Notes under the pieces: model-generated
What the model saw: only the letters and a program-made list of their open reading frames with translations
Database searches by the model: none
What the model was told of the DNA's origin: nothing
Source: a virus
Taxonomy: Duplodnaviria; Caudoviricetes
Reading direction: 5' to 3' (one strand)
Virus record (IMG/VR): IMGVR_UViG_3300032053_000074
Location: 1 to 60,830 of that record
Length of the DNA stretch: 60,830 nt
Part shown: positions 6,711 through 59,479 of the stretch, piece by piece
Position numbering within the stretch: the stretch's first letter is position 1
How the letters are laid out: each line of letters begins with the position of its first letter
Made by a program: the position numbers and the translations under genes

Positions 6711-9700
6711 TTATTTTGTATTGTGGATAATGTTACTTTCATCCATTAAGGATTTACTTGAATTTTCCGAAATAAGTTCCTGTGTTACATCAGTCTGTGA
6801 TTTCTTTAGAAATACGGATAAATTACTAATTAAATCCTTATTCTCCTTCATAGACACAGTTGATAACCTGTGTTCTTTTAGACTGAACGGCGAGTCATTC
6901 TCGAAATTATGATCGAAATTACTCTTGCGTTTACCTTCACTATTCTTATTTGGAGAAGATAATCTTTCCTTAGAACCTAATGGATCTTCTCCAAATGGAT
7001 GCTGTGCTCTGGCATCATGTTCGCCACTTTGGTCTCGTTTTTGCTTAATTTCCTTAACCAAATCTTCTGGTTCTTCTTTATTTTTAGTTTCTCCAGGTGG
7101 AGTTTCTTCGTCACCCTTCCCATCCTCACCCTCGCCCTCACCGCCCTCACCCTCACCGCCCTCACCCTCACCAGGTTTACCTTCAAGGTCTTCTATATCA
7201 CCCAATCCACCACCACCACCACCACCACCACCACCCAATCCACCACCCAATCCACCACCACCACCAGAATCAGATTTTTCAGATCCGCCACTCTTTCCTA
7301 TGCCAATTTTATTAAACGGCTTAGCTGGATCATCACCATCTTCCTCAATTTTACTGAATCTATATTTCTGTTTCGAATCTTCCACTACCTGATCTTTAAC
7401 TTCTTTAATATCATCATCAGACATGTGGAATATATTTTTATAAACCCATTCATAAGAGAAGAATTTATTCTCGATCATGTCGGTTGATACAGAAACTTTA
7501 TCAGACCAAATCTCAAGTTTTTCCTTTTCAAAAATTGTACTTGGATTAGTTAATTCCAGTTTGAAATCAACTAGACTTTCGTCACGATATCCTTGAGCAT
7601 ATAGATGAACAATTCCGATTTTCTCTAGTTCATTTGCAATAATCCTCTGAATTCTCTGAATAGTACGAGCGAACCTGACATCTTCCGACGCAAGTGTAGC
7701 TTTTCCGGAAATACCTTCTTCATACCCAAGAAATGCTTTTGGGATTTTTAAGGCAGACATGAGTTTATTACGTAGATATTCGATATCTTCGGTACCCGTC
7801 CATTCCATACCACCAAGGGTATCGATTTTTGTGCCACTATCACTACCACGAACTGGAATGTAATAGTCTTCAACCATGTTCTGGAGATTAAAACGAAGAT
7901 TATATTCCCCACTCTGTTCATCCATATAAGGGACTTTCTTCATTTTATCCATCATCTTCTGCATGTAATTATCAACTTCGGCAGGAGGGATATTTCCAAT
8001 ATCAGTATAAAATATACGCTTTTCAGGTGCTCTCATTATACGATGGATTAACATAGCATCTTCCATCAATGATAATTGCTTCCAAACACGTCTTGCCCCT
8101 TCCAACATAGATTTTCCATATGGCATGAAATTACTATCGGACATCAATCGGAAATGTGCCATCTCGTAGTTTTCTAATACTTCTGCTTGTGCCGTATCAG
8201 TTGGACGCAATTGAAATTTAACATAACGTTTATTATTTGGATCAGCATTCTCAATACGCTCAACATTGTAGGAAGAAATTGGTTCAACCATGTAAACCCC
8301 ATATTCAGGAGTAATATACAATTTTAGATAAAAATCACCGTATTTACAATTTTTCACAAATACACCACTATCTTTGGTTATATTTCCATCCAAATCTTTT
8401 CCACACATCGCAAAATTATGTCTATCATGTTCCCCATTTGGACCAACAACAGTCATACAATAAACGTCGGAAGATTCGTTTATAATTTCAACGGTTTTAA
8501 CTTTATGATTTGGTAGAATACCGTTCTTTCTAAGTTCCTTCATTTTTTTACTGGCAGATTCTCGTCTATCAGAAGTCCATCCACTCTTCATATTTTCACA
8601 TGCACGTTCTCTTCGAACTGGGTCTTTCCACATTTCTGTTTTTAATTTAGATCGTATTTTATCCGATCTAAGATATTTGTCAATACTTCTTTTTCTTTTC
8701 TCTATAATTTCTGGAGTATGTAATATACGTTTACAATGATCTGCGTGTAGTCGTCGATGATCAAAAAACTCCATCGGAATTAGATTTGTTGGAGAATTGT
8801 CATATTTATTGAAATTTTTATGATGTAAAATTCTATTAATGCTATCAGTTTTAATTCCATATGACTCAGCCACGTTACGATGTGTAAAATCATATTTATC
8901 AAGTCCAGGATTATATATCATCTCATACTTATTCATCCCTCCTTTTTCAGGACTCAATTTTCTATAGAACGGCATTAGACTATCATTTTCTTTAAGATCC
9001 TCTGCACATCGTTCAATTCCATTTCGTAATATAAATGGATGTTCGGGTGAAGTTTCTACAAATGAATTGTCATCGAATGTTATTTTTACTATTTTGTTCG
9101 CTGTATAATTTTTATCACACCAAACAACCTTACCTGGTACAATTTGATTTGTTCCATCTTGAACCGAATATACCCAAACTCCCTCCCCGTTCTTTATTTT
9201 ATTGGATAAATCATCTATTCTTATATTTTCCCCCGATAATAATGGAATATAAGAATCATATTTTACTGGCATGTTTCTAGTCCATGACCACATGTTAAAT
9301 TGTACATTTAAGATATCATTGTATAAATTTTCCAATATTTCTTTTACATTATTATTGCTAGAATGCACCGTCAGCATTTTTCCCATTTCATTATAAGTGA
9401 GGCATTCATCCGCATAAATGTCGAGAGCACTACTCAAAATTGGATCCATATCCATTGTATTTTTTACGATACAACTATCCGTAGCAAAATTTGCAAACTT
9501 CTCAACTGTAACATCATATACATCTATTTGACCAATAGATTCAATAGAAACTATTGTATGATTCAAGGTGGATTCAACTTCTTTTTTAAATGATTTCCAA
9601 TTTGTAAATTTTTCGGTTAATCTATTTTGAAGGACAGAGTAATCGCATCCAATATCTTTTATAAGATCCCAAGAAATTAATTTTCCATTTTTCTTATAAT

Positions 9701-10784
9701 GTTCTATGGCTTTTAACTTTAATACTTCAATCGTCAAATCATTACGGTATTTTGGATTTTTCTTTCCATTTTGATCTCTATTAACAAACACTTTTTTTAG
9801 AGTTTCTGATCTATTCTCATTAGATTCATCGGAATGTATTTTACCATAAAACGGATTATTTTTTCCCTTACGTTCTCCATTCCATTTATGAAATAATCTA
9901 TTTTTATATCCGTTGGATGACTGTATCTTATCAAGTGTGTTTTGTTTGTTTTCTGGCGACCATAATTTATCAGAGATAATTTTACAGTGATATGCTTTAT
10001 GGTCTGATTCTGTCATTATTTGGAGATTATTTGGCAAATTATTATTCTTATCGAAATTCTTATGATGAACCACTTCATTATATTTCAATGGTCTATCGAA
10101 TTGTTCTGCCACAATTTTATGTTCGGATTGCCATCCCTTACTGAAATTATAAATATGTCTATAACCATGACCATAAAAATCTTTTTGATAAAACGGCATC
10201 ACCGATTCCCCCACCTTCAAATCGACAATTTTCTTATATTCTCCATTTCTCATTAAAAACGGGTGTTTTAGGCTTCCAATAACATATTGTCCGTTATCAA
10301 AAGTCACCTTATAACCCATTCGGGTTCCTTTTTTCTTACGAGGATGAAATGCCTTTCCTAATTTTATTGATTTTGACACATGATCATATGAGAATACCCA
10401 AAATCTCTCTTGAGGTTGGTCTTTGTATTTTTCAGAAAGTTCTCTTATAGTTGGACGATTTCCATCCGGCAATGGAATAATGGTATCTGGTCCAACGCAA
10501 TCATAATCACGAAACAAATCCATTCTTGCAGCTTGATAAGATAATGCAAAATCACGAGAATATGCATTATAAGCAGTTGATCTAATTCGATTGAATCTAT
10601 CACGTAACGAATTTCGGTCAGTGGCAAACATGACATTATTAGTGTCCTTTATCTTAATCTGTTTACCACCAACGTTTCTAACAATTACTTCCGTGGAAAA
10701 TAGACTCTTTAATCTTGAAAATAAAGATTGTTTTTTAACATCTATAATCTCGTCTTCAAATGGTTGTAATGATGGTGTTGGCAT
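6711..10784 (-). CDS. Portal vertex protein (T4 gp20-like) with two inteins
   Basis: Spliced exteins give DYD|TMDMDPILSSALDIYADE, RNM|CKYGDFYL, PYGKSMLE, LMEDAMLIHRIMRAPEKRIFY, EDYYIPVRG, ALKIPKAFL. Confidence 0.95.
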   Translation of the reverse strand: MPTPSLQPFEDEIIDVKKQSLFSRLKSLFSTEVIVRNVGGKQIKIKDTNNVMFATDRNSLRDRFNRIRSTAYNAYSRDFALSYQAARMDLFRDYDCVGPDTIIPLPDGNRPTIRELSEKYKDQPQERFWVFSYDHVSKSIKLGKAFHPRKKKGTRMGYKVTFDNGQYVIGSLKHPFLMRNGEYKKIVDLKVGESVMPFYQKDFYGHGYRHIYNFSKGWQSEHKIVAEQFDRPLKYNEVVHHKNFDKNNNLPNNLQIMTESDHKAYHCKIISDKLWSPENKQNTLDKIQSSNGYKNRLFHKWNGERKGKNNPFYGKIHSDESNENRSETLKKVFVNRDQNGKKNPKYRNDLTIEVLKLKAIEHYKKNGKLISWDLIKDIGCDYSVLQNRLTEKFTNWKSFKKEVESTLNHTIVSIESIGQIDVYDVTVEKFANFATDSCIVKNTMDMDPILSSALDIYADECLTYNEMGKMLTVHSSNNNVKEILENLYNDILNVQFNMWSWTRNMPVKYDSYIPLLSGENIRIDDLSNKIKNGEGVWVYSVQDGTNQIVPGKVVWCDKNYTANKIVKITFDDNSFVETSPEHPFILRNGIERCAEDLKENDSLMPFYRKLSPEKGGMNKYEMIYNPGLDKYDFTHRNVAESYGIKTDSINRILHHKNFNKYDNSPTNLIPMEFFDHRRLHADHCKRILHTPEIIEKRKRSIDKYLRSDKIRSKLKTEMWKDPVRRERACENMKSGWTSDRRESASKKMKELRKNGILPNHKVKTVEIINESSDVYCMTVVGPNGEHDRHNFAMCGKDLDGNITKDSGVFVKNCKYGDFYLKLYITPEYGVYMVEPISSYNVERIENADPNNKRYVKFQLRPTDTAQAEVLENYEMAHFRLMSDSNFMPYGKSMLEGARRVWKQLSLMEDAMLIHRIMRAPEKRIFYTDIGNIPPAEVDNYMQKMMDKMKKVPYMDEQSGEYNLRFNLQNMVEDYYIPVRGSDSGTKIDTLGGMEWTGTEDIEYLRNKLMSALKIPKAFLGYEEGISGKATLASEDVRFARTIQRIQRIIANELEKIGIVHLYAQGYRDESLVDFKLELTNPSTIFEKEKLEIWSDKVSVSTDMIENKFFSYEWVYKNIFHMSDDDIKEVKDQVVEDSKQKYRFSKIEEDGDDPAKPFNKIGIGKSGGSEKSDSGGGGGLGGGLGGGGGGGGGGLGDIEDLEGKPGEGEGGEGEGGEGEGEDGKGDEETPPGETKNKEEPEDLVKEIKQKRDQSGEHDARAQHPFGEDPLGSKERLSSPNKNSEGKRKSNFDHNFENDSPFSLKEHRLSTVSMKENKDLISNLSVFLKKSQTDVTQELISENSSKSLMDESNIIHNTK
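7127..7265 (-). repeat. Gly- and Gly/Glu-rich low-complexity tract in the portal C-terminus
   Basis: (cca)n and ccctcaccg repeats on + encoding GGGGGLGGG and GEGEGG. Confidence 0.85.
8349..9269 (-). mobile_element. Portal intein 2 (307 aa, starts with Pro, class-3-like, HNH endonuclease)
   Basis: M|PVKYDS...TSPEHPF...ILHHKNFNKYDNSPTNL...DVYCMTV...VFVKN|C. Confidence 0.85.
9459..10499 (-). mobile_element. Portal intein 1 (347 aa, HNH + NUMOD3-like)
   Basis: D|CVGPDT...SLKHPF...VVHHKNFDKNNN...GKNNPFYGK...DVYDVTV...CIVKN|T. Confidence 0.9.
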
Positions 10785-10841: not shown

Positions 10842-13772
10842 TTATGATAATAGCCATCTAATATCCTCGGTATTCTGCTTACCGAATCCTTGACGACCAG
10901 TGTTCATTTCCCATGATTTCTGACCATCTCGGACTTGACCTTGTTTATAAACTGGTACATCTTCAGTTTTGCTCTTGTTTATTTGACTGATTCCAGCACG
11001 AGTTAAATCAATTCCTTCTTGTCTCAATCTTAATGCAGTATCCCGCACCCACAGTCCAATTGCTAATGACATTATTAAATCGTCATTATATGGTTCCATC
11101 GCCTGTGCCTTACCCGCCTTCCATATAAATGTACTTAACTCCATAAGCGTTCTTTTCGAAAATATATCAACTGCGGTGTCCCTAAAATACATTTCCAGAT
11201 TATTTATTATAAGTGGACGAGTCTTCATATTGGTACTAAACCCAGGAACCAATTTCTTTTCTTCCGAATCATACCGATTCGATAATTGTCGCTGAACATC
11301 AACATACTTCAGATCTACTGAACTAAAAAATGTATTCTTGTATTCTCGATCCAAAATTGCTTGAAGAGTCGCCCAACCTACGTTTTCCCGTTCTACAATA
11401 AGAATTGCATTATTATATTCCGTCGCCAAGGCTACTAAGAAATTTCCATAATCTTTAGTTCCCAATGATCCTTTATATTCTGCAACTTGAGTTGGAGTAG
11501 TGCAAGTAATGTCTAATACATGACATGCTGAGAAGTCCATAGCATCTCCTCTGGCAACGTCAGCTGAAACAATATATGAATGAGCATAATCTGGATATTG
11601 CCATACCCATAATCCTTTATCCGCTCCTCTAATATCTACAGGATCTTTCTGTTTATTTTTCTTATAAAATTCTACGATATTTAAATCAATAACGTTATCA
11701 CCAGATGCTAGAAAGTTACAGTCATATTCTTGAGAAGCTTTCTTTGCACTTCCTTGCTTTTCACCCTCAACTCGCCTCCATTCTTCATCACGTTCAGGAT
11801 GTAATTGCCACGGCAAAGAAATAGGATGAAATCCATTTTTACCAATTGTTCCATCATTATTTTCTTCCGCCCCCATCCACATTTGATGAAACCAATTACC
11901 AACTCCTCTAGGCGTAGATAATATGATTGCATTACCACCAGTATTATGGTTGACATATCCTTCACAAACAAACCGCTCCACCAACGGAACTTTCAAATCA
12001 TAACTGAAATCGTTGCAGAGGTATCGAATTGAGATTACCTCGTCAAAAAACTCGGAAGTATCTTTCTCATATTGTTTTTTCAACAACTTGTAATTTTCCG
12101 ATGGATGTAATTTGTTTGAAACATCCAACAAGGATTCGACCGATGTAATACTCAGCCCCTTTCCATTGTACCACAAATATCTATCATAAAAACAGTTGTG
12201 TTTCTTTGAAAAATCTCTAATAGACATTCCACTTTCCAAGATGAGATTCTTTACGAGTGTTTTGTCAGGAAAAATTCGTTTAATGGATTTTCTTGATAAT
12301 TTCCGCCATCCTTCTTGTTTTCTTTTCAATCTAAATCCAACGGTAGAATAAAAAGAATGGGCGTCAAATCCACCAATAAACAACTCAAATCCATAAAATG
12401 TTCGTGTTTTATCTTTGATAACGGTAGATTTTGTTGACTTCCACGTTACATCTCGTATGTAACAATTGATTCCCATATTCAACAATATTGCTCTTACGTT
12501 AGAAAGTAGTTCGTAAGAAACAGAGGTAAGTTTAATTCCCTTCGCCCCCAATGAGCACCCGTCCCCATCAAACAATCCTTGGAGAAATGCTACTTGCTCT
12601 TCTTGTGATGCCGACAAAATTTGAGTAGGAACTCGCTTAGTATGTGCCGTTCCTTCACATCCTATCCATTTCAGAAGTTCTTGAACCCACACAGATTGAA
12701 TGTAATAATGTCGTTCATCACTATTTTTGAATCCAATACTTTTTAACCAATTGATTATTTCCTCATCTGTATTGGTAATACCAACGGTTCCTCTTGAAAA
12801 ATGACCTTCTGCTGTCCACAGTCCGGCTAAATAGCAAGTGTCAGTTGAAGATATGTCATACTTTTTACTATCAACCCGAATATCCGGAACGAATTTAGAA
12901 AAATCTATAGATTTTCCGAATACATTTTGATTATATTTACACAAAACAAAGTCTTTATTTTCTTCTATATTATTTACAGATTTCCAGCCGTTTTTAGTCA
13001 TTAGAGGGTGGTCTTTTGTCGCTATCAATCTCCCGCCACTCTTAAACTGAACTTCGTAGAGATCAGATTTTTCCGACATATAAAAAGAAGACGCATAAAC
13101 TAATTCATCTCCGTCATGAACTCTCAATGTTATATCATTAAATCCAATTTTCGTTTGATTATTTATAAGATGTTCCAATCTCATCAGTCCATTTTCAGTT
13201 AGAATCAGTTGAGATTTATCCAGACACGATAATGTCGGTTGTGCCGAAGTCCACAATTCTGCGGCATCATCGATCAATGCTGCTTCATCGATTATCAACA
13301 ATGAAAGTGCTTGTCCAACACCTGATTTCTTAGTAGTAGAAGCAGCCTTAATCTGAGATCCATTTGCAAATTTAAGTGATAATCTATTATCTTCAAGACA
13401 TTTTACCTTTAACCATGATGGCAAATTCTCATTGGCAAATCTGACCTTTGAAATAATATCTTTTGCATCATCTTGTCTCAATGATATAATAAGGATATTC
13501 TTGTCTTTATTGAATATCATAGTCCACAATGAAAATGCGGATACTAGGGTAGAAATACCCATCTGACGGGATTTTAAAATAATATTAAACTTATAATCAT
13601 GGAATGATTTAAGCGTTTCTTCTTGAAATTGAAATAGGTCGAAATTAATTGTTCCTCTTACAGGATGTTGAATTTTTACATAATGCTTCATGAAATATAC
13701 AGGGGAATCTGCACACTTCGAGTATTGTTGCTTAACTATGTCCTGATAACTTAATTCGGGTTTATCAGACAT
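10842..13772 (-). CDS. terL: Terminase large subunit (T4 gp17-like) with intein
   Basis: KSRQMGIST (Walker A), LLIIDEAA (Walker B), LS|TGG..IILSTPRG, SQEYDC, ADVARG, DDLIMS. Confidence 0.95.
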   Translation of the reverse strand: MSDKPELSYQDIVKQQYSKCADSPVYFMKHYVKIQHPVRGTINFDLFQFQEETLKSFHDYKFNIILKSRQMGISTLVSAFSLWTMIFNKDKNILIISLRQDDAKDIISKVRFANENLPSWLKVKCLEDNRLSLKFANGSQIKAASTTKKSGVGQALSLLIIDEAALIDDAAELWTSAQPTLSCLDKSQLILTENGLMRLEHLINNQTKIGFNDITLRVHDGDELVYASSFYMSEKSDLYEVQFKSGGRLIATKDHPLMTKNGWKSVNNIEENKDFVLCKYNQNVFGKSIDFSKFVPDIRVDSKKYDISSTDTCYLAGLWTAEGHFSRGTVGITNTDEEIINWLKSIGFKNSDERHYYIQSVWVQELLKWIGCEGTAHTKRVPTQILSASQEEQVAFLQGLFDGDGCSLGAKGIKLTSVSYELLSNVRAILLNMGINCYIRDVTWKSTKSTVIKDKTRTFYGFELFIGGFDAHSFYSTVGFRLKRKQEGWRKLSRKSIKRIFPDKTLVKNLILESGMSIRDFSKKHNCFYDRYLWYNGKGLSITSVESLLDVSNKLHPSENYKLLKKQYEKDTSEFFDEVISIRYLCNDFSYDLKVPLVERFVCEGYVNHNTGGNAIILSTPRGVGNWFHQMWMGAEENNDGTIGKNGFHPISLPWQLHPERDEEWRRVEGEKQGSAKKASQEYDCNFLASGDNVIDLNIVEFYKKNKQKDPVDIRGADKGLWVWQYPDYAHSYIVSADVARGDAMDFSACHVLDITCTTPTQVAEYKGSLGTKDYGNFLVALATEYNNAILIVERENVGWATLQAILDREYKNTFFSSVDLKYVDVQRQLSNRYDSEEKKLVPGFSTNMKTRPLIINNLEMYFRDTAVDIFSKRTLMELSTFIWKAGKAQAMEPYNDDLIMSLAIGLWVRDTALRLRQEGIDLTRAGISQINKSKTEDVPVYKQGQVRDGQKSWEMNTGRQGFGKQNTEDIRWLLS
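11943..13226 (-). mobile_element. Terminase intein (428 aa, LAGLIDADG endonuclease)
   Basis: S|CLDKSQ...ATKDHPL...YLAGLWTAEG...FLQGLFDGDG...SYDLKV...YVNHN|T. Confidence 0.92.
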
Positions 13773-51638: not shown

Positions 51639-51714
51639 TGGTGGAGATCCCGGGCTTCGCTCCCGGCACCTACTGATTGCAAATCAGTCGCTCTACTAAA
51701 TGAGCTAGATCCCC
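51639..51714 (-). tRNA. tRNA-Ala(TGC), atypical T-loop
   Basis: G3:U70; ACTGA-TTTGCAA-TCAGT; T-loop AGCGAAG; D-loop lacks GG; ACCA end. Confidence 0.88.
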
Positions 51715-51729
51715 ATTATTATAATAAAT

Positions 51730-51802
51730 TGGTTGCGGTCGCCAGAATTAAACTGGTCCAATACCTTATGAGAGTATTATGCTATCATTACACCTCCCCG
51801 CA
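51730..51802 (-). tRNA. tRNA with CAT anticodon (Met or Ile2), degenerate
   Basis: ATACT-CTCATAA-GGTAT; mismatched acceptor stem; T-loop TTTAATT; ACCA end. Confidence 0.6.
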
Positions 51803-51850
51803 ATAAAATTCAACCATCTACTTATAACTATATCACAAAACTATTAAATG

Positions 51851-52348
51851 TCAAGAAATTTCTTCTATTGGAAGACTATACCATTTATCAGGAAAGAATT
51901 TTTCATTATTTTGTTCAACAAAATATTCATTTCCGCTTCTATAAATAACAGAAAATCTATTTCCATTATAACCTAATACACTTTCAAATTCTTTTGGTGT
52001 ATGTATAAATATATTGTAAGATATATATTCTTTTCTGCATTTATCACAATATGCTTCAAAATAATATTCTCCACTCTTATACTTTCCCGATTTTCCACAT
52101 CTAATACATGATTCAGAAATCCATTCATCATGGTCTATTTTAATTTCTTTGTATTGTGTTGGTATAGGTTCCATTTTAGAAATAATATTATTTCCAACAA
52201 TTATCTCGTCAAATATGTATTGTCCATATCCAGATTTTACACAATAAACTTGTTTGAATTCAGTAATAATTTTCCCAATTTGAATATCTTTACTTCTATG
52301 AGAATTATACTTGATTATATCACCGACTTTTAAATTATTTATATTCAT
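51851..52348 (-). CDS. Hypothetical protein (zinc ribbon)
   Basis: CIRCG...CDKC. Confidence 0.55.
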   Translation of the reverse strand: MNINNLKVGDIIKYNSHRSKDIQIGKIITEFKQVYCVKSGYGQYIFDEIIVGNNIISKMEPIPTQYKEIKIDHDEWISESCIRCGKSGKYKSGEYYFEAYCDKCRKEYISYNIFIHTPKEFESVLGYNGNRFSVIYRSGNEYFVEQNNEKFFPDKWYSLPIEEIS

Positions 52349-52365
52349 AAAATTAGTTTATTGGT

Positions 52366-52761
52366 TTACCAACCTAAATTGTGAAAATACTTTGTAAATA
52401 ATTCCATTCCTTCTTTATATTTTAAATATGCATCATCATAATCTGATTTTATTTTTATTTCAGACCATTTGTCCATAGTCAATGTGAATTTAAAAGCAAA
52501 TATCATTTTATCTAAAATATGATTCCATGCTTCTTCCGATACTTCTCCACCAGGATATGCATTAGTTACTCCTTTAAATCTAATCAATCTTGGAAGAATA
52601 AATTCTGCGATTACTTTATCAAGACACCAAGTTTCAGTATCGGAAAATCCGTTTGACTTCAATTGCTTCATATGCCTATTATAATGTTTATCATTCTTTT
52701 TAATATAGAGCGGCATTTTAATAGACCATTTACTAATTAAATTCTTTGATATTTTTTTCAT
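52366..52761 (-). CDS. Phage hypothetical protein
   Basis: ETWCLD..IA.FILPRL..FK...YP...W..ILDKMI.AF...G.ELF.KYF..L. Confidence 0.65.
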   Translation of the reverse strand: MKKISKNLISKWSIKMPLYIKKNDKHYNRHMKQLKSNGFSDTETWCLDKVIAEFILPRLIRFKGVTNAYPGGEVSEEAWNHILDKMIFAFKFTLTMDKWSEIKIKSDYDDAYLKYKEGMELFTKYFHNLGW

Positions 52762-52786
52762 AGCTTCTTATTTTTAATTCTAAGTT

Positions 52787-52822
52787 GTTTCAATCAACTC
52801 ATCACCCCAAAGGGTGATGAAA
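52787..52822 (-). CRISPR. Solitary CRISPR-repeat-like unit (no array)
   Basis: TTTCATCACCCTTTGGGGTGATGAGTTGATTGAAAC: 9-bp hairpin plus GTTGATTGAAAC tail, flanked by a 17-bp direct repeat. Confidence 0.55.
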
Positions 52823-52948
52823 ATTTTTAATTCTAAGTTTACGAGCATCATCCAATAATTTCTGCTTCAACTTAGCATCTAATATAAATTGCCTAAAACT
52901 TCCTTTCGGACAACCGCATACTTCATCAATTGTAATTTTCTTATTCAT
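52802..52948 (-). CDS. Small protein (48 aa) whose 3' end is interrupted by the repeat unit
   Basis: MNKKITIDEVCGCPKGSF...KLRIKNFHHPLG*; overlaps the stop of the upstream gene. Confidence 0.5.
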   Translation of the reverse strand: MNKKITIDEVCGCPKGSFRQFILDAKLKQKLLDDARKLRIKNFHHPLG

Positions 52949-53552
52949 AAGGATTTGCTAATATAGATTCTAATGTTCCCCTTGGCATATCGTCCAAAGT
53001 CTTTACAAAATCACGTAATAATCTGAAACTATTTGGAATCAATTCATCTGGAATATCAGTTGTATCCGTCACAAATGGTTTTATTAATTGTGCAGCATGA
53101 ACAGCTTTTAAATGAGTACGTGCCATTAATTTATCATGAGATTCAGGAGTAAATCTCTCCCATGTCTTATCCATCATTTGATTATTATCAAAGATGTTAG
53201 ACACCTTACCAAATTTATCTATAAATTCCTTTTCTGAATCATAACCACATTCGTAAGTGAGAATGGAATTTCTTTTTAATTCAGGTGTTCTCTTTCCGAA
53301 AAGAGGATGAATACTTGTTACTTCCGAAGTATGTCTTAACAAGATATTAGTACTTGATTCTTGTACTGAACACACGTTGATCAAATGCATTTTTTTTGTA
53401 AAACACAATTCATGTGCCACACTTTCATAAGCAGAAATGGGGACTGCTAAAATAACGCTGTAGGCATCATTTGTAATATTAAATCCATGCACTGGTAACA
53501 ATTCTTTTAAAAATTTACCAAAAGATCCATCTCCTATAATATTAATTTTCAT
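52941..53552 (-). CDS. Prephenate/arogenate dehydrogenase-like protein (TyrA family)
   Basis: IIGDGSFG Rossmann motif, VILAVPI, NVCSV, HPLFG, TPESHDKLMA..H. Confidence 0.7.
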   Translation of the reverse strand: MKINIIGDGSFGKFLKELLPVHGFNITNDAYSVILAVPISAYESVAHELCFTKKMHLINVCSVQESSTNILLRHTSEVTSIHPLFGKRTPELKRNSILTYECGYDSEKEFIDKFGKVSNIFDNNQMMDKTWERFTPESHDKLMARTHLKAVHAAQLIKPFVTDTTDIPDELIPNSFRLLRDFVKTLDDMPRGTLESILANPYE

Positions 53553-53629
53553 ACTAAGGAGTATATACTAGATACATAATATGTCAAGTGTAAAGTTCAC
53601 TTGATTTTACAGGTAGATAACACTTAGAA

Positions 53630-53733
53630 TTTGGACAAATAGTGCATATTATTTCATGACCAACTTTCATTGGTGCGATGCGGCACTTGCGCCCAATCCC
53701 TTACGGAATACTCCTTTCGGGAATTTGTCCAAA
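53630..53733 (-). ncRNA. Unknown 104-nt multi-hairpin RNA (RNase P S-domain-like)
   Basis: 11-bp closing stem TTTGGACAAAT/ATTTGTCCAAA; internal GAAA, GTAA and GAAA hairpins; AGTGC/GCACT stem; TGAAA in an internal loop. Confidence 0.6.
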
Positions 53734-53734
53734 A

Positions 53735-53990
53735 TTTTTGTTGCTGCCGTAGCCGATGTTCTGTTTTATCTCTACATTAATCTCAATATTTCTATTGGCC
53801 AAACTTTATGTTCAGCTGCTCCAACCTTGACTTAATAACGTGTAGAACTACACTCAGTCACTTTAGGATTACTTCTAATATGTGGTTATATCGAATATAG
53901 AGTTAACGCTCCAATTCTCCCAATCATCTTCTATGAAGCATCGAACTTCCTCTAACCTTTCGGTCAGCGTAGAGTCGCATACAACAAAAT
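53735..53990 (-). ncRNA. rnpB: RNase P RNA (compact, divergent S domain)
   Basis: P1, P2 (CTCTAC/GTAGAG), P3, CR-I GAGGAAGTTCGATGC pairing with CR-V ACAGAACATCGGCTA (P4, bulged U), P5, P15, P18 GAAA, CR-IV AGATTAATG. Confidence 0.85.
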
Positions 53991-54006
53991 TCAAATAACT
54001 GACAAT

Positions 54007-54035
54007 ATCCTACACTGAAGGAGGAACATTGTCAA
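54007..54035 (-). promoter_or_regulatory. Sigma70-like promoter for the RNase P RNA
   Basis: TTGACA-17nt-TAGGAT ending about 17 nt before P1. Confidence 0.55.
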
Positions 54036-54390
54036 TCTTTTTATCTTCAGGTTTCGGAACAATTTCCAATTCGGTTTTAGCTGATTGTAATTGTGCCATC
54101 TGAAAATCATAATTTAATTGTGATTCATTATCCTTACTCTCAGCAAATCTCTGAACTGGTTTCATTAGACTAAATGCAACGAGTATATATACCCATTCTT
54201 TTGGAGGAACGACTAATGCCCCCGATGACATTGATAGATAGGATACTATTGTCATAAATGTTGCAATAACAATAAATCCAATTATGCGTGAATATGAAAA
54301 TGATGGAGGATCGGTTGCATCAAGAAACATTGACCATATAGGTGGTGCTTTTGGCTTTGCCGGGGTTAAACTTTTTATTTCTTTACTCAT
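54010..54390 (-). CDS. Two-TM membrane protein (holin-like)
   Basis: S.SRIIGFIVIATFMTIV and WVYILVAFSL hydrophobic segments; charged C-terminus. Confidence 0.5.
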   Translation of the reverse strand: MSKEIKSLTPAKPKAPPIWSMFLDATDPPSFSYSRIIGFIVIATFMTIVSYLSMSSGALVVPPKEWVYILVAFSLMKPVQRFAESKDNESQLNYDFQMAQLQSAKTELEIVPKPEDKKIDNVPPSV

Positions 54391-54406
54391 ATCTATTCAA
54401 CATAAC

Positions 54407-54754
54407 TTAAATACTTTTTGGTCTATTTTCTTCGATGGATTTCTTCAATCCTTCAAGATCATCCCGATACATCATGATCATATAAGTAAATCCAGGTTTA
54501 TCATTATCTTCGACCATTTCCATTATGAAATTTTTAATATCAATGTCCGATGGTTTCCAATCAAATTCTTCACAAATTGCAACTACCGATTCTCCTAATG
54601 GAGATATATTAAATGCACATTCTACCACTTTCATTTTTGCAAGTTTATCGAGATAACTTATAATCATCATCATCGAAATATATTCTGGCTGAATAACCAG
54701 ACCATCAATTTTCGTACGCTCTATAATTGCACTGAACTTTTCATCATTTGTCAT
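54407..54754 (-). CDS. Hypothetical protein
   Basis: 115-aa ORF preceded by TACTTATA. Confidence 0.6.
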   Translation of the reverse strand: MTNDEKFSAIIERTKIDGLVIQPEYISMMMIISYLDKLAKMKVVECAFNISPLGESVVAICEEFDWKPSDIDIKNFIMEMVEDNDKPGFTYMIMMYRDDLEGLKKSIEENRPKSI

Positions 54755-54784
54755 AGTTTATAAGTATACCTTTTTAGTTAAGAA

Positions 54785-54863
54785 TGGTCCGCCCGGTCAG
54801 ATTTGAACTGACATTATTCCTGACCCCAAATCAGGTGCCATAACCAAGTTAGGCGACGGACGG
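54785..54863 (-). tRNA. tRNA-Pro(TGG)
   Basis: CCTGA-TTTGGGG-TCAGG; GTTCAAATC; ACCA. Confidence 0.93.
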
Positions 54864-55031
54864 ATATTTATGTTATTTCTTTTTAGAAATTAAAGTTTTT
54901 AATAGATTTAGGAACATCTTCAAAGAATTTATTGATTTCGGCTTTGACTTAACCAATTTCTTTTCCTTGCACTTCGCTTTAGGAACGTGTTTTTTTCTCA
55001 TTTATAATTGAATTACTAATCTCCCATATCT

Positions 55032-55418
55032 TTATTCTATGAATGTCAATGGAACTTGTTTCAATTGTCCCTTACTCAATATGCTAAGATCAAGTATTCT
55101 AACTTCATATGTGGACCTTCTAGTTACTATTAACTGATTACCAACACCTATAGGAAATGCAATGGTATTCCAATTTGTTTTAATAAAACCATTGGTATCA
55201 ATGTATGTATAATATCCTTCAAAATATCCATTATAACCATTATATAAATTATAAGTATGTCCTGGAACAATGTTAAAGTAAGAATCTGAATATGAGACAT
55301 CATATGATGTTGGCTGAACACTGTATGGATGAATATAATAAAATGTGAATCCTGCAATTGTTGATACGCATATTGCAAAACATATAATACTGACTAATAT
55401 TGTCTTTAGAATTTTCAT
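55032..55418 (-). CDS. Secreted or membrane-anchored hypothetical protein
   Basis: Signal-like MKILKTILVSIICFAICV; the track start overlaps a tRNA, so moved to 55418. Confidence 0.55.
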   Translation of the reverse strand: MKILKTILVSIICFAICVSTIAGFTFYYIHPYSVQPTSYDVSYSDSYFNIVPGHTYNLYNGYNGYFEGYYTYIDTNGFIKTNWNTIAFPIGVGNQLIVTRRSTYEVRILDLSILSKGQLKQVPLTFIE

Positions 55419-55427
55419 ATTTTTAGA

Positions 55428-55517
55428 TGGCGGAAAGCACAGAGCACGATTCTGATGCACACTTAAGGCACGAAGAGTTTAGCAAACTCTCATGGCACCC
55501 CGGCCATTTTACTTTCC
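55428..55517 (-). tRNA. tRNA-Ser(GCT), atypical
   Basis: AGAGT-TTGCTAA-ACTCT; long variable arm; T-loop ATCGTGC; A8; GCCA. Confidence 0.82.
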
Positions 55518-55588
55518 ATTGTGTATAACTATAACACATATTTTCAAAATGTCAATAAATATTATAACGAACATTATAGATAATAAAT

Positions 55589-55662
55589 TGGTAGGAGATA
55601 GTGGAATCGAACCACTCACTGATGGATGTAAACCAACTGTTATACCGATTAACTAATCTCCC
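55589..55662 (-). tRNA. tRNA-Val(TAC)
   Basis: Loop TTTACAT; GGTTCGATTCC; ACCA. Confidence 0.93.
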
Positions 55663-55670
55663 ATAAATTG

Positions 55671-55781
55671 TTTTCCGATTGCAGATTTAAACCTGCCCTA
55701 AGTGTTGACCACACACTCGCTTTATTATTGGTTACAACCTTCTTATTTTAAATAAGATCTTGACCAGAATCTATCGGAAAA
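55671..55781 (-). ncRNA. tRNA-like RNA with an enlarged first arm
   Basis: TTTTCCGAT/ATCGGAAAA closing stem; AGTGT-7nt-ACACT arm; GCAG-GTTTAAAT-CTGC T-like arm; no CCA. Confidence 0.4.
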
Positions 55782-55783
55782 AA

Positions 55784-55872
55784 TGGCGGATGACTGAGTA
55801 TTCGAAACCCACCCCTGTTAAGGGGCAATCCGATTTCAAGTCGGTTCCAGTACCCTGACTGGTTAATCATCC
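55784..55872 (-). tRNA. tRNA-Ser(TGA), U53-A61
   Basis: CCGA-CTTGAAA-TCGG; long variable arm; GCCA; paralog of Ser(CGA). Confidence 0.88.
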
Positions 55873-55903
55873 ATATAATAACTATAAGTTAATATTCTCA
55901 AAA

Positions 55904-55979
55904 TGGTGCTCCCATACGGAGTTGAACCGTAATCTTCGATTTAGGAAATCGTAGCTCTATCCATTTGAGCTATAGGAGC
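55904..55979 (-). tRNA. tRNA-Arg(CCT)
   Basis: CGAT-TTCCTAA-ATCG; GGTTCAACTCC; ACCA. Confidence 0.93.
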
Positions 55980-55984
55980 ATAAA

Positions 55985-56146
55985 TTATTTCAATATTTTC
56001 AATACCAATTTTGCTTTCTTTAACTTCTGTTCCGTCAACTCATATTCTTTAGGAGTTGCTTTTCTTTTAAAATTAGGACTACGTAATCTATTCTCAAGAA
56101 ATAAAATGTAATCCTGTTCGTGTTTTAGTCGTTTATTCTTCGTCAT
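55985..56146 (-). CDS. Small basic protein (53 aa, not in ORF track)
   Basis: MTKNKRLKHEQDYILFLENRLRSPNFK...KLVLKILK. Confidence 0.5.
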   Translation of the reverse strand: MTKNKRLKHEQDYILFLENRLRSPNFKRKATPKEYELTEQKLKKAKLVLKILK

Positions 56147-56154
56147 AAATAAAA

Positions 56155-56796
56155 TTATATATCCATATCAGTTTTAATATTTGTCATATCGTCTTTATCT
56201 TTAAATAAGAAAAAATGATTATTCGCTTCTAACAAATAATAATTACTTATCTTACAAAGTTTTTTAGCCATATAAGAATATACTTTGCTTCTTCTACCTT
56301 CATCATAATCTTTAAATGATATTCCTCGTGGAGAATGACGATTAATAAAAGTAAGCATAATGCTTTGTAACTTCTTCAATACTCGTATCGGAGAATTAGA
56401 ATTTGTCAACCCATATTCAAATTCATCAAGTTCCTTAGAAAATGTCTTGGTATCATTACCAATTAATAATGGCTTTTTAATATATTGAGATGATATACGC
56501 TTAAAAGAAAAGCGATAGAATCCAACAAGAACTCTTGAAATATCACATTCCACTTCAAAAATATCTCCATCTATATTTATATTTTTTCTTAATGTATTTT
56601 TATCCAGTTTAAAAATATTATGTTCGTCTGAATCTTCCGGGTCTAATAATTCTGAAAAATATTTTTTCATTATATCTTTTTTATTATCTACAAAATAATT
56701 TTCGGTTATAAATATTTTACCAATTTTATCAGCATACCAATCTTTCGCTAAACTTTCAGTAATTACATTCTTCTTAGATGTTATCTTACATTTCAT
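56155..56796 (-). CDS. Hypothetical protein
   Basis: 213 aa; P.GISF......RSKVY..M. Confidence 0.6.
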   Translation of the reverse strand: MKCKITSKKNVITESLAKDWYADKIGKIFITENYFVDNKKDIMKKYFSELLDPEDSDEHNIFKLDKNTLRKNINIDGDIFEVECDISRVLVGFYRFSFKRISSQYIKKPLLIGNDTKTFSKELDEFEYGLTNSNSPIRVLKKLQSIMLTFINRHSPRGISFKDYDEGRRSKVYSYMAKKLCKISNYYLLEANNHFFLFKDKDDMTNIKTDMDI

Positions 56797-56880
56797 ATTT
56801 TAATTATTTATCATAAATCGTCAGAAATATTATCTTCAATATTTACGGTTCCGTTAAGGTTCCTATTGAATGATTAACAA

Positions 56881-57114
56881 TCAATACCAAGCATTCCCAA
56901 ATATAATGTCACCTTGTAAGGATTTATGCATTAAAGAAGTCATTCTTTCTATCTGTCTTCCATATGTATCCGTTTTATTTGCATCATCTGATACAAAAAT
57001 TATGTTTATACATGTAGGACTCCAAACTGCACTTACCAATGCTCGATGTTCATTTCTTAGAGAATCAATAAATGTTACTGAATCACCTATTTTTACTATT
57101 GCTGTTTCGTTCAT
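56881..57114 (-). CDS. Hypothetical protein
   Basis: IGD.V.F.D.....ALV.AVW...CIN..FVS.D....D.YGRQIER.TS. Confidence 0.6.
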   Translation of the reverse strand: MNETAIVKIGDSVTFIDSLRNEHRALVSAVWSPTCINIIFVSDDANKTDTYGRQIERMTSLMHKSLQGDIIFGNAWY

Positions 57115-57176
57115 ATTTCTGTCTTTCTTTTTACTCTAAATACATAATTATATTTAGAAAACAGAAGTTCTAAAAA

Positions 57177-57253
57177 TGGTGCAGTCGGAGGGACTCGAAC
57201 CCTCAACCTTACGGGTAGAAACCGTTTGCGCTATCCAATTGCGCCACGCCTGC
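57177..57253 (-). tRNA. tRNA-Arg(TCT)
   Basis: ACGG-TTTCTAC-CCGT; GGTTCGAGTCC; ACCA. Confidence 0.93.
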
Positions 57254-57259
57254 ATAAAT

Positions 57260-57344
57260 TGGTGCTGGTAGAGGGAGTCGAACCCACACGCCTTTCGGCA
57301 AAAGATCCTAAATCTTTCGTGGCTGCCAATTACACCATACCAGC
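57260..57344 (-). tRNA. tRNA-Leu(TAG)
   Basis: AAAGA-TTTAGGA-TCTTT; variable arm GCC-GAAA-GGC; ACCA. Confidence 0.95.
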
Positions 57345-57348
57345 AAAA

Positions 57349-57573
57349 TCATTTTTTCTTTTCATCGGGACACGATGATTCAAGTTCAAATTCAAATTGT
57401 TTTTCTGAGGGAAATGGTCTTAACATTGCACTCAATTTTTTTGGAAAATCAAAAAACACACAAAGTGAATCAGTACCTACATAAACTGTATTTCCAGTTT
57501 GACGCTTGATTGCTTTTTCAAAAGTCTTCATAGACTCGAAATCTGCATCTTCGAATTTAAGATTTAATTTCAT
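57349..57573 (-). CDS. Hypothetical protein
   Basis: ATG start at 57573 (MKLNL). Confidence 0.5.
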   Translation of the reverse strand: MKLNLKFEDADFESMKTFEKAIKRQTGNTVYVGTDSLCVFFDFPKKLSAMLRPFPSEKQFEFELESSCPDEKKK

Positions 57574-57574
57574 A

Positions 57575-57706
57575 TTAATGTTTCCAAGGGTCTGGTGTTG
57601 GTAAAGTCCAAGTTGATTTTTCTGGTTCACCTATGGGATGATCATTAAAAAATGTCGTACATCCACTTAGCAGTATTAATATGATTGAACCTAAAAATAA
57701 TTTCAT
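57575..57706 (-). CDS. Small lipoprotein (43 aa, not in ORF track)
   Basis: MKLFLGSIILILLSG|C lipobox; TTGACA-16-TATAGT promoter upstream. Confidence 0.6.
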   Translation of the reverse strand: MKLFLGSIILILLSGCTTFFNDHPIGEPEKSTWTLPTPDPWKH

Positions 57707-57841
57707 AATTCATTAACTATACAGTAGATTAAGATAATGTCAACTAAATTCTTATAGCTGCTACTAATATTTCATCATGATAAAACACGTTTGCCTTATT
57801 TAACTCATCCTATGAGCACTATAATATTTACGTAATTATTT

Positions 57842-58267
57842 TTAATAAATCAACTTACTATCAAATAGTGTAGATTCTAATTTGGAAATCTGTAATGTTA
57901 TAAATTCTCTAAGTTCCTCATCATGACAAATATAAGAAATTCTAAATCTAATACCACCCATTTTTAATTTAATCTGATGAATTTCAAATCCTTCTATTTT
58001 AGAGTTCTTTTGAAAACTAACTAAATATTCAAGAAATTCATCTATAATTAAATACCATAAATGATGAAATGGCTCTCCGAAACTCATTCCATACCATCCA
58101 ATAGGAACATATTCCCGCCATTTACTTAATAATTTTCTCTCCTCTTCAAAACAACCTTCACTGTATTTTGCTTTAATTTCACTATTAATATAGAGATTAA
58201 TATCCGTTACTTCAGGAAACCAATAATTTCTATATCCATCATATTTACTCAAGATTGTTGTTATCAT
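57842..58267 (-). CDS. Phage hypothetical protein
   Basis: GW...W..II; QIKLKMGGIRF. Confidence 0.6.
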   Translation of the reverse strand: MITTILSKYDGYRNYWFPEVTDINLYINSEIKAKYSEGCFEEERKLLSKWREYVPIGWYGMSFGEPFHHLWYLIIDEFLEYLVSFQKNSKIEGFEIHQIKLKMGGIRFRISYICHDEELREFITLQISKLESTLFDSKLIY

Positions 58268-58320
58268 AAAACACATGATACACTGTATTTACGGAATGTC
58301 AATAATATTTTATTGGAAAT

Positions 58321-58397
58321 TGGTGCGCCTGGAGGTAGTTGAAACCTCATCATATCCGGTTAAAAGCCGGGTGCCGATCCACTGTAGCATCAAACGC
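58321..58397 (-). tRNA. tRNA-Lys(TTT), atypical (A8, U53-A61)
   Basis: CCGG-CTTTTAA-CCGG; GAGGT-TTCAACT-ACCTC; ACCA. Confidence 0.85.
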
Positions 58398-58406
58398 ATT
58401 GAAAAC

Positions 58407-58519
58407 TAGATACCATTTTTTTGGTCTGCTGTCTTACCACTTGACCATATCATTCGAAAATGATAAATGGAATCGAACCATTGTATGCAGATTGAGTTTT
58501 ATTATGCTGTTAGTATCTA
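58407..58519 (-). ncRNA. Circularly permuted tRNA mimic (YrlA/Y-RNA-like)
   Basis: Order T-arm, closed acceptor hairpin (UUCG), D-arm; TCTGC/GCAGA stem; outer TAGATACTA/TGGTATCTA stem. Confidence 0.7.
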
Positions 58520-58528
58520 AATTATAAA

Positions 58529-58602
58529 TGGAGCCGGATGACAGAATCGAACTGTCATTCTCTGTTTACAAAACAGTAGTTCTACCATTGAACTAAACCG
58601 GC
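58529..58602 (-). tRNA. tRNA-Thr(TGT)
   Basis: CTGT-TTTGTAA-ACAG; GTTCGATTC; TCCA. Confidence 0.93.
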
Positions 58603-59289
58603 TTAAATCTTTTTAAATTCTATTCCATTTTCTGTCAATAATGCATAATCACCATCTTTACTTAGTCTTCCTATGCATATTAATTTTATGAGGAAATTAT
58701 TATATTCTACTACAAAGTTTCTATGATTATGCCCAATTAAAACCGCTTTTGTTTTATTATTCCATGGATAGGTTTTAATAAATTCATCTTTAGTAAATGT
58801 TTCTTCTGTAAAAGACCATAAATCATTAGGACGATTATGAAAACAGATATAATTACTTTCATCTGGTAAAATCAACTTAAATCCTCTTGGCAATCCCTTT
58901 AGATAATCAATATGTTGTTGAGTTAAATCATAAATATCCGACTCAGCTAAAACTGATTCTCCCTCATTATATTTCGGTAAAACCTTAACAAAACTGTCGC
59001 CGGTACTACAACCTAAAATATGGGATTCATGATTTCCTTCCAAACATGGAATCTGGTTGTCTATGAAATATTGAATTGATTTTTCATTCCACTTTTCTTT
59101 CACTTTAGAAAATAAAAAGGTAATATCACCCAAACAAATAAACTTATTATTCGAATAAATTTCTTTTAATTTTCTAATATTTGTAATATTAGTATGAGTA
59201 TCTGTAATTATAACTAACGGAAATTCTTTAACTTCAATTTCTTGAAGATTAGGTTTATTGTCGTATGACTTAGTTAGTATTAATTCCAT
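58603..59289 (-). CDS. Calcineurin-like metallophosphoesterase
   Basis: TDTH.N, CLGD, GNHE, CFH, GHNH motifs. Confidence 0.85.
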   Translation of the reverse strand: MELILTKSYDNKPNLQEIEVKEFPLVIITDTHTNITNIRKLKEIYSNNKFICLGDITFLFSKVKEKWNEKSIQYFIDNQIPCLEGNHESHILGCSTGDSFVKVLPKYNEGESVLAESDIYDLTQQHIDYLKGLPRGFKLILPDESNYICFHNRPNDLWSFTEETFTKDEFIKTYPWNNKTKAVLIGHNHRNFVVEYNNFLIKLICIGRLSKDGDYALLTENGIEFKKI

Positions 59290-59347
59290 ATCGTAACATA
59301 ATATCATATCCCTTGATTAGAGTCAAGTAATTAAGTTGGCATTATAA

Positions 59348-59396
59348 TGTCCGATATATGCGGTCTTATACTAGAATATTGTCCGATATATGCGGT
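59348..59396. repeat. 17-bp direct repeat TGTCCGATATATGCGGT x2 (32-bp period)
   Basis: Copies at 59348-59364 and 59380-59396. Confidence 0.85.
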
Positions 59397-59403
59397 TTTA
59401 AAT

Positions 59404-59479
59404 TGGTACCTCCAGCGAGACTCGAACTCGCAAACTCAGTTTCGAAGACTGTTATGATATCCAATTTCATCACAGAGGC
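59404..59479 (-). tRNA. tRNA-Arg(TCG)
   Basis: CAGT-CTTCGAA-ACTG; GTTCGAGTC; ACCA. Confidence 0.92.

Follow-up and report, generated by a model that had tools for sequence, protein, structure and literature searches.

A phage RNase P RNA homologue with a predicted type-A catalytic domain and a specificity-domain stub

Main

RNase P RNA is regarded as a housekeeping ribozyme of the cell. The GGU motif of the bacterial RNA pairs with the 3′-CCA of tRNA, and in holoenzyme structures the protein RnpA contacts helix P3 and the conserved regions (CR) CR-I, CR-IV and CR-V. Type-T RNase P RNA, of about 200 nt, has nearly no specificity (S) domain, works with archaeal proteins and is without the P15-P17/GGU arm. 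Phages carry tRNAs and transfer-messenger RNA (tmRNA), and some carry tRNA-modifying or repair enzymes. Here we analyse an RNase P RNA-like gene on the minus strand of a 60,830-base virus record from IMG/VR (IMGVR_UViG_3300032053_000074; 'the window' denotes this whole stretch of DNA), for which an original prediction, made from the sequence alone, had proposed a compact phage RNase P ribozyme with an intact catalytic core. We conclude that the RNA is almost certainly a true RNase P RNA homologue under selection; its complete catalytic core, as proposed, is borne out by the CR blocks, by covariation in the core helices and by Rfam matches to homologues.

Several described RNAs resemble the phage RNA in part. 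With bacterial type-A RNA (RF00010; Escherichia coli M1 RNA) it shares the order and pairing of P1-P6, P15-P17 and P18, together with CR-I, CR-IV, CR-V, the bulged U in P4, an A-rich J5/15 and GGU in the loop of P15. Unlike that RNA, it is about 256 nt long, against a model length of 367, is without P8, P9, P13, P14 and CR-II/CR-III, has a P4 shorter by one pair, carries a further hairpin between P15 and P18, lies in a phage genome and scores below the Rfam gathering threshold. Reduced bacterial RNAs (Mycoplasma fermentans and some members of the Candidate Phyla Radiation, CPR) are likewise natural, of bacterial type and deprived of S-domain helices. According to PMC8172020, CPR RNase P RNAs lack P12, P13, P14 and P18 and were also detected only below Rfam cut-offs, and no RNAs but those of M. 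fermentans, Thermoproteaceae and some CPR are without P12. These RNAs are the sole essential copy of their cell and some are without GGU/UGG, whereas the phage RNA keeps GGU and the P15-P17 arm, has its S domain reduced further and belongs to a virus whose host presumably has a normal enzyme. The natural archaeal type-T RNA of Thermoproteaceae (Pyrobaculum; PMC3579882 and PMC13462272) is similar in its strongly reduced S domain, but the phage RNA is clearly of bacterial type A.

The engineered Eco CP RPR is a type-A catalytic domain without an S domain; in the phage RNA, too, P6 is kept and P18 is optional, but Eco CP RPR is a laboratory construct, whereas the phage RNA is a natural conserved gene with a short invariant S stub. 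According to PMC5839562, a type-A catalytic domain without the S domain is active but less efficient, and a P6-like interaction matters for it while P18 does not. This matches the phage family, in which P6 is kept and P18 is lost in 5 of 30 members. Camelpox virus encodes a relative of RNase P/MRP RNA that is of eukaryotic type and is reported to be without pre-tRNA processing activity (PMC3001073); its virus infects animals, and in sequence it is unrelated to the phage RNA. Phage tRNA arrays, tmRNA and GOLLD RNA have their genomic setting in common with the gene described here, but their families and roles are different. We found no earlier report of a phage-encoded RNase P RNA in the full-text literature, a search that did not cover most subscription journals and supplements.

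Catalytic domain of the phage RNA

The window RNA reads GAGGAAGUUCGAUG ... AGAUUAAUG-GUAGAG-AUAAAACAGAACAUCGGCUAC, which is the order and near-sequence of CR-I, CR-IV and CR-V; this resemblance was checked against the RF00010 consensus line. Through the homologous locus L118 (homologous loci carry L numbers here), CR-I, GAGGAAGUUCGAUG, aligns to the RF00010 consensus GAGGAAAGUCCGG with one A fewer. A block like the CR-IV/J18-2 sequence AGAUGAAUG stands before the 3′ strand of P2 (AGAUUAAUG, 53775-53783, aligned to CuAGAugAAUG), and this block is invariant or nearly so across the family.

The helix map was taken from the cmscan alignment of L118 to RF00010 and carried to the window through alignment A2, a MAFFT alignment of 30 distinct full-length sequences that are 56-74% identical to the window. 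The parts of the gene outside the S domain are given below, with the share of alignment cells that pair and the number of pairs that covary.

53735-53990, minus strand: whole RNase P RNA-like gene, 256 nt, from the P1 5′ strand to the P1 3′ strand.
53981-53989 / 53736-53744, minus strand: P1, UUUUGUUGU/GCAACAAAA, with a 3-bp extension at 53977-53979 / 53745-53747.
53969-53974 / 53770-53775, minus strand: P2, CUCUAC/GUAGAG; 100% paired, 6/6 covary.
53952-53967, minus strand: P3 hairpin, CUGACC-GAAA-GGUUAG; 99.4% paired, double changes in 4/6.
53939-53952, minus strand: CR-I block, GAGGAAGUUCGAUG, containing the P4 5′ strand.
53939-53947 / 53751-53758, minus strand: P4 pseudoknot, AGUUCGAUG/CAUCGGCU, with U53945 bulged; 99.2% paired, 5/8 covary.
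53935-53938 / 53872-53875, minus strand: true P5, CUUC/GAAG; 100% paired, 3/4 covary.
53929-53933 / 53843-53847, minus strand: P6 pseudoknot, UAGAA with UUCUA in the P17 loop; 100% paired, 3/5 covary.
53820-53871, minus strand: J5/15 (UAA) and the P15-P16-P17 arm, placed by the L118-RF00010 alignment transferred through A2.
53866-53868 / 53820-53822, minus strand: P15, UCC/GGA; 96.7% paired, 3/3 covary.
53856-53860 / 53828-53832, minus strand: P16, UGACU/AGUCA; 77.1% paired, 5/5 covary.
53851-53853 / 53840-53842, minus strand: P17, GUG/CAC; 100% paired, 2/3 covary.
53824-53826, minus strand: GGU motif in the 3′ half of the P15 loop, predicted to bind CCA.
53799-53815, minus strand: extra hairpin between P15 and P18, CUGAAC-AUAAA-GUUUGG; 81.5% paired, 5/6 covary.
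53784-53797, minus strand: P18-like hairpin, CAAUA-GAAA-UAUUG; helices 13 and 14 of the map.
53751-53783, minus strand: CR-IV/J18-2 (AGAUUAAUG, 53775-53783), P2 3′ strand, CR-V (ACAGAA, 53759-53764) and P4 3′ strand (CAUCGGCU).

In P1 with its extension, all 12 pairs have changed on both sides and 79.2% of cells are paired, the alignment being ragged at its 3′ end. P3 carries inserts of up to ~80 nt in relatives. The extra hairpin occupies the same place as P15.1 of type-B RNAs, a likeness of position only, and is missing in L118, L142 and L192-L194; the loop of the P18-like hairpin is GAAA or GCAA in most members, and the hairpin itself is missing in 5 of 30.

The original prediction had drawn P1, P2, P3, P4 with its bulged U, J18/2 and the GAAA-loop hairpin correctly, and P2 and P4, whose covariation among homologues it had singled out as a check, are both supported. 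Other parts of its map have to be redrawn. The helix that it took for P5 (GCUUCA/UGGAGC) pairs in 75.0% of cells, compared with 76.8% in shuffles, 491 of 500 shuffles being as high, and was rejected on these pair counts; the true P5 is CUUC/GAAG. It had found no P6, P16 or P17, all of which are present and covarying, and its short P15 without GGU is the extra hairpin at 53799-53815, the true P15 having GGU. The ~110 nt that it placed between the P5 strands resolve into the 51-nt S-domain stub and the P15-P17 arm; the absence of CR-II and CR-III from that region stands, by reading of the sequence. Judged from sequence, the RNA is a type-A catalytic domain with essentially all of its parts and not a core stripped of P15-P17.

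Covariation was counted for a structure of 71 pairs in 14 helices, or 2031 cells. Standard pairs fill 92.1% of the cells, compared with 72.2% in shuffles (none of 500 reaches 92.1%), and changes on both sides occur in 53 of 71 pairs compared with 38.2 in shuffles; because the structure was derived from the same sequences, the rows are related and the alignment is MAFFT's, these shuffle figures are not probabilities; the compensatory changes are nonetheless numerous and diverse. Sliding the 3′ partner by 1-3 columns leaves 31-44% of cells paired. Among 39 further distinct sequences, 37 show complementarity in the variable 4 bp of P4, by means of 16 different strand pairs. Folding of 53735-53990 gives a minimum free energy of -62 kcal/mol (z -2.6), a value as low being found in 1 of 200 shuffles.

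Of the 92 columns on which at least 90% of the remaining 29 sequences agree, the copy in the window itself matches 88. It departs at four, and two of these make up one pair of P6, A53930/U53846, which is C/G in all 29 others. This compensatory change is particular to the lineage and speaks for selection on the pseudoknot in the window's own copy.

Specificity-domain stub

Between the strands of the catalytic domain, the following elements make up what there is of an S domain.

53876-53926, minus strand: S-domain stub, 51 nt, spanning the P7 strands; helices 7 and 8 of the map.
53923-53926 / 53876-53879, minus strand: P7-like helix, UGAU/AUUA, at the stub ends.
53893-53917, minus strand: stub hairpin, GAAU-U-GGAG-CGUUAA-CUCU-AU-AUUC, of varying length in relatives.

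The stub runs from the P7-like UGAU/AUUA through an invariant UUGGGAG and the hairpin to a conserved GAUAUAACCACAU. P7 never varies and therefore carries no covariation information. The hairpin measures from ~15 to ~170 nt in relatives and, by reading, its bases covary among them (GAAUG/CAUUC, GAACGG/CCGUUC, GAACAUC/GAUGUUC, GAAUCA/UGAUUC); L137 and L150 are identical by eye over the printed stretches except for a ~104-nt insert in this hairpin. Neither the CR-II nor the CR-III motif (ACAGRNA, UGAAA) was found in the window stub by reading, and the L118 cmscan alignment to RF00010 leaves the CR-II/CR-III model positions empty. The hairpin inserts of L131, L137 and L142 were considered as a true P10-P12 with CR-II/CR-III, and there the motifs (AGUGAAAG, AAACAGG) stand in the wrong order. 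A canonical S domain, with P8-P14 and the CR-II and CR-III T-loop modules, is absent here, as had been proposed, and the same is true across the whole phage family. Our guess is that UUGGGAG and GUUAAUACCAC make up an asymmetric internal loop, which either stands in for part of the elbow-binding surface or binds a protein.

Comparison with Rfam families

The sole Rfam ribozyme families to match homologues in E-value mode were RNaseP_bact_a (RF00010) and RNaseP_arch (RF00373). RF00010 matched L118 at 44.1 bits (E 2e-10; E 9.7e-13 in a repeat) and L211 at 47.4 bits (E 1.6e-11, with 19 loci searched together), and RF00373 matched L142, L192 and L194 at 36.4, 30.8 and 29.4 bits. A match to the type-B family RF00011 was listed in none of the searches, which hide overlapping matches of the same clan (CL00002); the presence of P6, P16 and P17 also sets the RNA apart from type B. 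Every catalytic-domain feature of RF00010 that could be tested was found. An S domain with CR-II/CR-III was not, and neither the window nor any homologue searched reaches the RF00010 gathering score.

Several observations weigh against the assignment to RNase P and against a working enzyme. Rfam gave no RNase P match on the window, either at the gathering score or at E values up to 10 on 901 nt, and an RF00010 search with the window's own record gave none. The Rfam search proposed in the original prediction failed for the window itself in this way, and succeeded, always below gathering, at 5 of 27 homologous loci (1/7, 4/19 and 0/1 in separate sets), with E values from 1e-4 to 1e-11; the homologues score 29-47 bits, compared with gathering scores of 100 (RF00010) and 84 (RF00373). 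When L211 300-575 (276 nt) was searched alone, its RF00010 match was not reproduced, a discrepancy suggestive of an effect of filtering or of the match envelope. Compared with the RF00010 consensus, P4 lacks one A-U pair, and a U-G pair takes the place of its C-G beside the bulged U in 29 of 30 members. Loss of the modules that read the T-loop would be expected to weaken tRNA recognition. Finally, no RNA runs were listed among those containing the stretch; the DNA holders are sediment metagenomes, some of them possibly the source sample.

Spread of the family

Homologues were collected along several routes. Sixteen loci were reached through a relative of the 203-aa protein encoded beside the RNA gene, and single-sequence nhmmer found the RNA in several of these and in L055. 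Two family motifs gave 22 viral stretches, all 22 confirmed by the family profile, and a further 36 stretches added L164; in a metagenome motif scan, 28 of 36 stretches were confirmed by the profile. The same motif, searched in one genome each of 185,579 prokaryote species, gave seven stretches, none matching the profile or Rfam, and the four of these seven that were read resemble coding DNA. A first motif scan with AGATNAATG..ACAGAAC returned 117 stretches with L055 as the only family member. A looser motif across CR-IV and CR-V returned 90 viral stretches, and a companion scan with another gap returned six, none of them a family member. Together, the two later scans yielded 84 new loci, of which 64 match the profile at E <=1e-3 and 46 are nearly full length, with 50 distinct sequences; 12 of the later-scan loci lie on contigs of 250-501 kb. 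The window itself is matched by the family profile at 53732-53993 (E 2.8e-70).

The distance from CR-I to CR-V is ~150-260 nt in 38 of the 39 distinct sequences that have both blocks, so that whole RNAs should measure roughly 200-310 nt. The exception is L263/L270. Here (L263 12880-13790, minus strand, and L270) some 650 nt split the RNase P-like gene at the P18 position and hold a 206-aa open reading frame (ORF) with a GIY-YIG endonuclease domain (PF22945, E 1.4e-9); this could be an intron or a homing-endonuclease insertion in the ribozyme gene.

With the window RNA as query, blastn gave no match in 50,697 phage records. With family members as queries, it found two unannotated copies in the 50,697 GenBank phage records. 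One, of ~255 nt, belongs to the cultured Stenotrophomonas phage vB_SmaS-DLP_6 (DLP6; KU682439.2, ~105770-106024; L220 1298-1552; profile E 1.4e-12) and lies directly before tRNA-Arg within the 30-tRNA region of that phage; Rfam gave no match on this copy, and the term 'RNase P' does not occur in the main text of the DLP6 genome paper. The other, of ~220 nt, lies at ~181.3-181.5 kb on the minus strand of LR756501.1, an uncultured phage of 735,411 bp (L221 435-655; profile E 9.5e-21), where a strong terminator-like hairpin follows the gene and no tRNA lies within 1250 nt. By eye, both copies keep P1-P6, P15-P16 and GGU.

Other structured RNAs and partial copies were seen at some loci. GOLLD RNA lies near the RNase P-like gene in L194 (851-1315; 152 bits, above gathering), and tmRNA lies near it in L138 (5523-5903), L136 (9098-9482, minus strand), L206 (6873-7283, minus strand) and L190 (612-1000). 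L194 also has a partial tandem duplication (1-100, 100-404), with a 3′ gene fragment directly before the full copy, and in L197 (983-1100) a 5′ fragment comprising P1-P3 and GAGGAA precedes the full gene.

Genomic setting and transcription signals

The CheckV completeness of the record is ~17%. Its proteins include a portal, a large terminase and a baseplate wedge, which identify the window as a tailed phage, and it is a fragment of a large one. The portal and terminase ORFs lie at 6711-10784 and 10842-13772 on the minus strand; the portal ORF has 1357 aa, with an HNH-endonuclease-like insert at residues ~193-299, and the large terminase ORF has 976 aa. These unusually long ORFs may hold inteins or fused endonucleases. 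As a clue to lineage or host, a helicase/PhoH-like protein gave distant matches only, below 35% identity.

Ten tRNA genes, all on the minus strand, lie between 51.6 and 59.5 kb (51639-59479), so the RNA gene stands inside a tRNA island, as the original prediction had said. All 10 encode 3′-CCA. AUUUAU immediately precedes nucleotide +1 in five of the 10, an A/U-only stretch ending in U precedes nine, and AUUU or UUUU follows the encoded CCA in seven. The gene itself occupies an intergenic minus-strand stretch, 53553-54009, with a 126-aa ORF (54010-54390) on one side and a 203-aa ORF (52941-53552) on the other; the ORFs overlapping this stretch are of 30-59 aa only. The flanks of the gene hold these further elements.

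54007-54035, minus strand: sigma-70-like promoter-like site, TTGACA-17-TAGGAT, 10/12 matches.
53625-53729, minus strand: second structured element, ~105 nt, 5 nt after P1, z -2.2, unrecognised as tRNA.
53584-53604, minus strand: terminator-like hairpin, candidate end of the transcription unit; one found compared with 0.4 expected in shuffles, with a weak T tail.

The promoter-like site, which had also been proposed before and was found in place (54035-54007), ends at 54007, ~17 nt before P1, and its -10 hexamer shares bases with the stop codon of the ORF before it. Sites with at least 10/12 matches stand just upstream in 15 of 30 family members, as counted without a shuffle control. Between promoter-like site and P1, a leader, AGUUCUUUGA, is conserved in many relatives (for example L137, L147, L152, L164 and L118), and its counterpart in the window, at 53991-54000, is AGUUAUUUGA; L206 and L196 instead use this GUUCUUU string for the 5′ strand of P2.

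The ~105-nt element is closed by an 8-bp stem (GGACAAAU/AUUUGUCC) around CCCGAAAG-hairpin-GUAAGGG, and 6 of its 16 pairs have double changes (three sequences). It is common to the window, L144 (5886-5985), L145 (11060-11152, minus strand) and L138, at the same place where relatives have a tRNA gene, mostly tRNA-Ala: a tRNA gene lies within a few nucleotides downstream of the RNA gene in 12 of 30 members (10 Ala, 1 Leu, 1 Val). Neither ARAGORN nor Rfam identified the element as a tRNA; the L145 version ends in ACCA, tRNA-like.

Proposed function and alternatives

The protein partner was sought in eight phage records: the window, contigs of 365 kb (100% complete), 148 kb (95%), 123, 18 and 50 kb, the complete DLP6 and the 735-kb phage. 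None of the eight has a match to rnpA (PF00825), in keeping with the original prediction, whereas the same search was positive in 10 of 14 control bacterial genomes. The lack of a phage rnpA fits the borrowing of host RnpA, and the CCA encoded by all 10 tRNA genes fits the retained GGU.

We propose, with modest confidence, that the gene encodes a type-A-derived RNase P RNA with the whole catalytic domain, which joins host RnpA and cleaves phage pre-tRNAs; that it is a working catalytic subunit with host RnpA is, from its sequence, somewhat probable. Transcription, RnpA binding and catalysis are steps that we infer. During infection, the RNA would be transcribed from its own sigma-70-like promoter-like site inside the tRNA island. 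As the phage has no rnpA, the RNA would bind host RnpA, and the complex would then cleave the 5′ leaders of the phage's own CCA-bearing pre-tRNAs. Where a tRNA gene starts a few nucleotides after P1, RNase P cleavage would also make the 3′ end of the ribozyme itself. Dependence on the tRNA elbow may be relaxed. Possible benefits to the phage are extra capacity for a large tRNA array, independence after shut-off of host RNA synthesis, or processing of phage-specific tRNA-like elements.

Other explanations account for part of these observations. A ribozyme working with an unrecognised phage protein, or with no protein, rather than with host RnpA is unlikely: UUGGGAG and GUUAAUACCAC are as conserved as the catalytic core and have no assigned partner, and most ORFs neighbouring the RNA gene in the window have no family match, but none of the neighbouring protein genes is conspicuous by its conservation. 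For the 203-aa Rossmann-like protein next to the gene, the phage collection gave no match, hence none in DLP6 or the 735-kb phage, and the regions that RnpA contacts in holoenzyme structures are the best-kept parts of the RNA. We consider it decidedly unlikely that the RNA is a non-catalytic decoy that soaks up host RnpA or pre-tRNA and so starves or redirects host tRNA maturation. A reduced S domain and a shorter P4 could mean lost function, and a viral RNase P-like RNA without processing activity is on record in camelpox virus (PMC3001073). However, selection has also kept the elements of substrate binding and catalysis (the GGU of the P15 loop, J5/15, ACAGAA, the bulged U and the P6 pseudoknot), and the phage's own 10 tRNAs also need RNase P.

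The abutting tRNA genes raise the possibility of a mainly cis-acting RNA, a ribozyme-tRNA tandem transcript that cleaves itself at the tRNA or tRNA-like element. It would suit the 12 of 30 members with a tRNA gene within a few nucleotides, the tRNA-Arg after the DLP6 copy and the stem-closed element at the same place in the window and three relatives. Yet 18 of 30 members have no tRNA there, in the 735-kb phage the copy comes with a terminator of its own and without a tRNA within 1250 nt, and a spacer of 3-8 nt leaves very little room for a tRNA to enter the active site of the molecule that carries it, which makes this reading very unlikely. Least credible of all is the reading of the gene as a remnant that now has no function, either a captured host rnpB in decay or an attachment-site fragment. 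Insertions of endonuclease ORFs are typical of conserved, functional genes, and the gene of L263/L270 hosts a GIY-YIG ORF. Although the RNA is shorter than bacterial RNase P RNAs and its Rfam scores are low, compensatory changes are found in every core helix over at least 30 distinct sequences and 39 further ones, the window keeps 88 of 92 conserved columns, and the gene extends over its full length, P1 to P1, behind a promoter-like site of its own. An attachment-site fragment was rejected because the gene is full length and divergent.

A wider version of the proposal that the RNA works with host RnpA is tentative, and we hold it to be rather doubtful. Large tailed phages (~150 kb to 735 kb) might commonly carry a miniaturised RNase P that uses host RnpA and whose invariant stub (UUGGGAG ... 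GUUAAUACCAC) replaces the elbow modules, with relaxed or re-targeted recognition; it would mature the tRNA array and tRNA-like elements such as the 105-nt one downstream, and cut its own 3′ end at an abutting tRNA. If this were true, it would be a takeover, at the level of RNA, of an essential host ribonucleoprotein, by one of the smallest natural bacterial-type RNase P RNAs.

Significance

Dozens of such genes stand unannotated in public phage genomes because their scores fall below the Rfam thresholds, an annotation blind spot. If the RNA is active, phages also supply the catalyst of tRNA 5′ maturation. The family would then amount to a natural 'minimal type-A RNase P' experiment, in which P8-P14, CR-II/III and sometimes P18 can be lost, and P6, GGU and a short invariant stub cannot. 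DLP6 on S. maltophilia would, in that case, provide a culturable system for asking why a virus needs its own copy.

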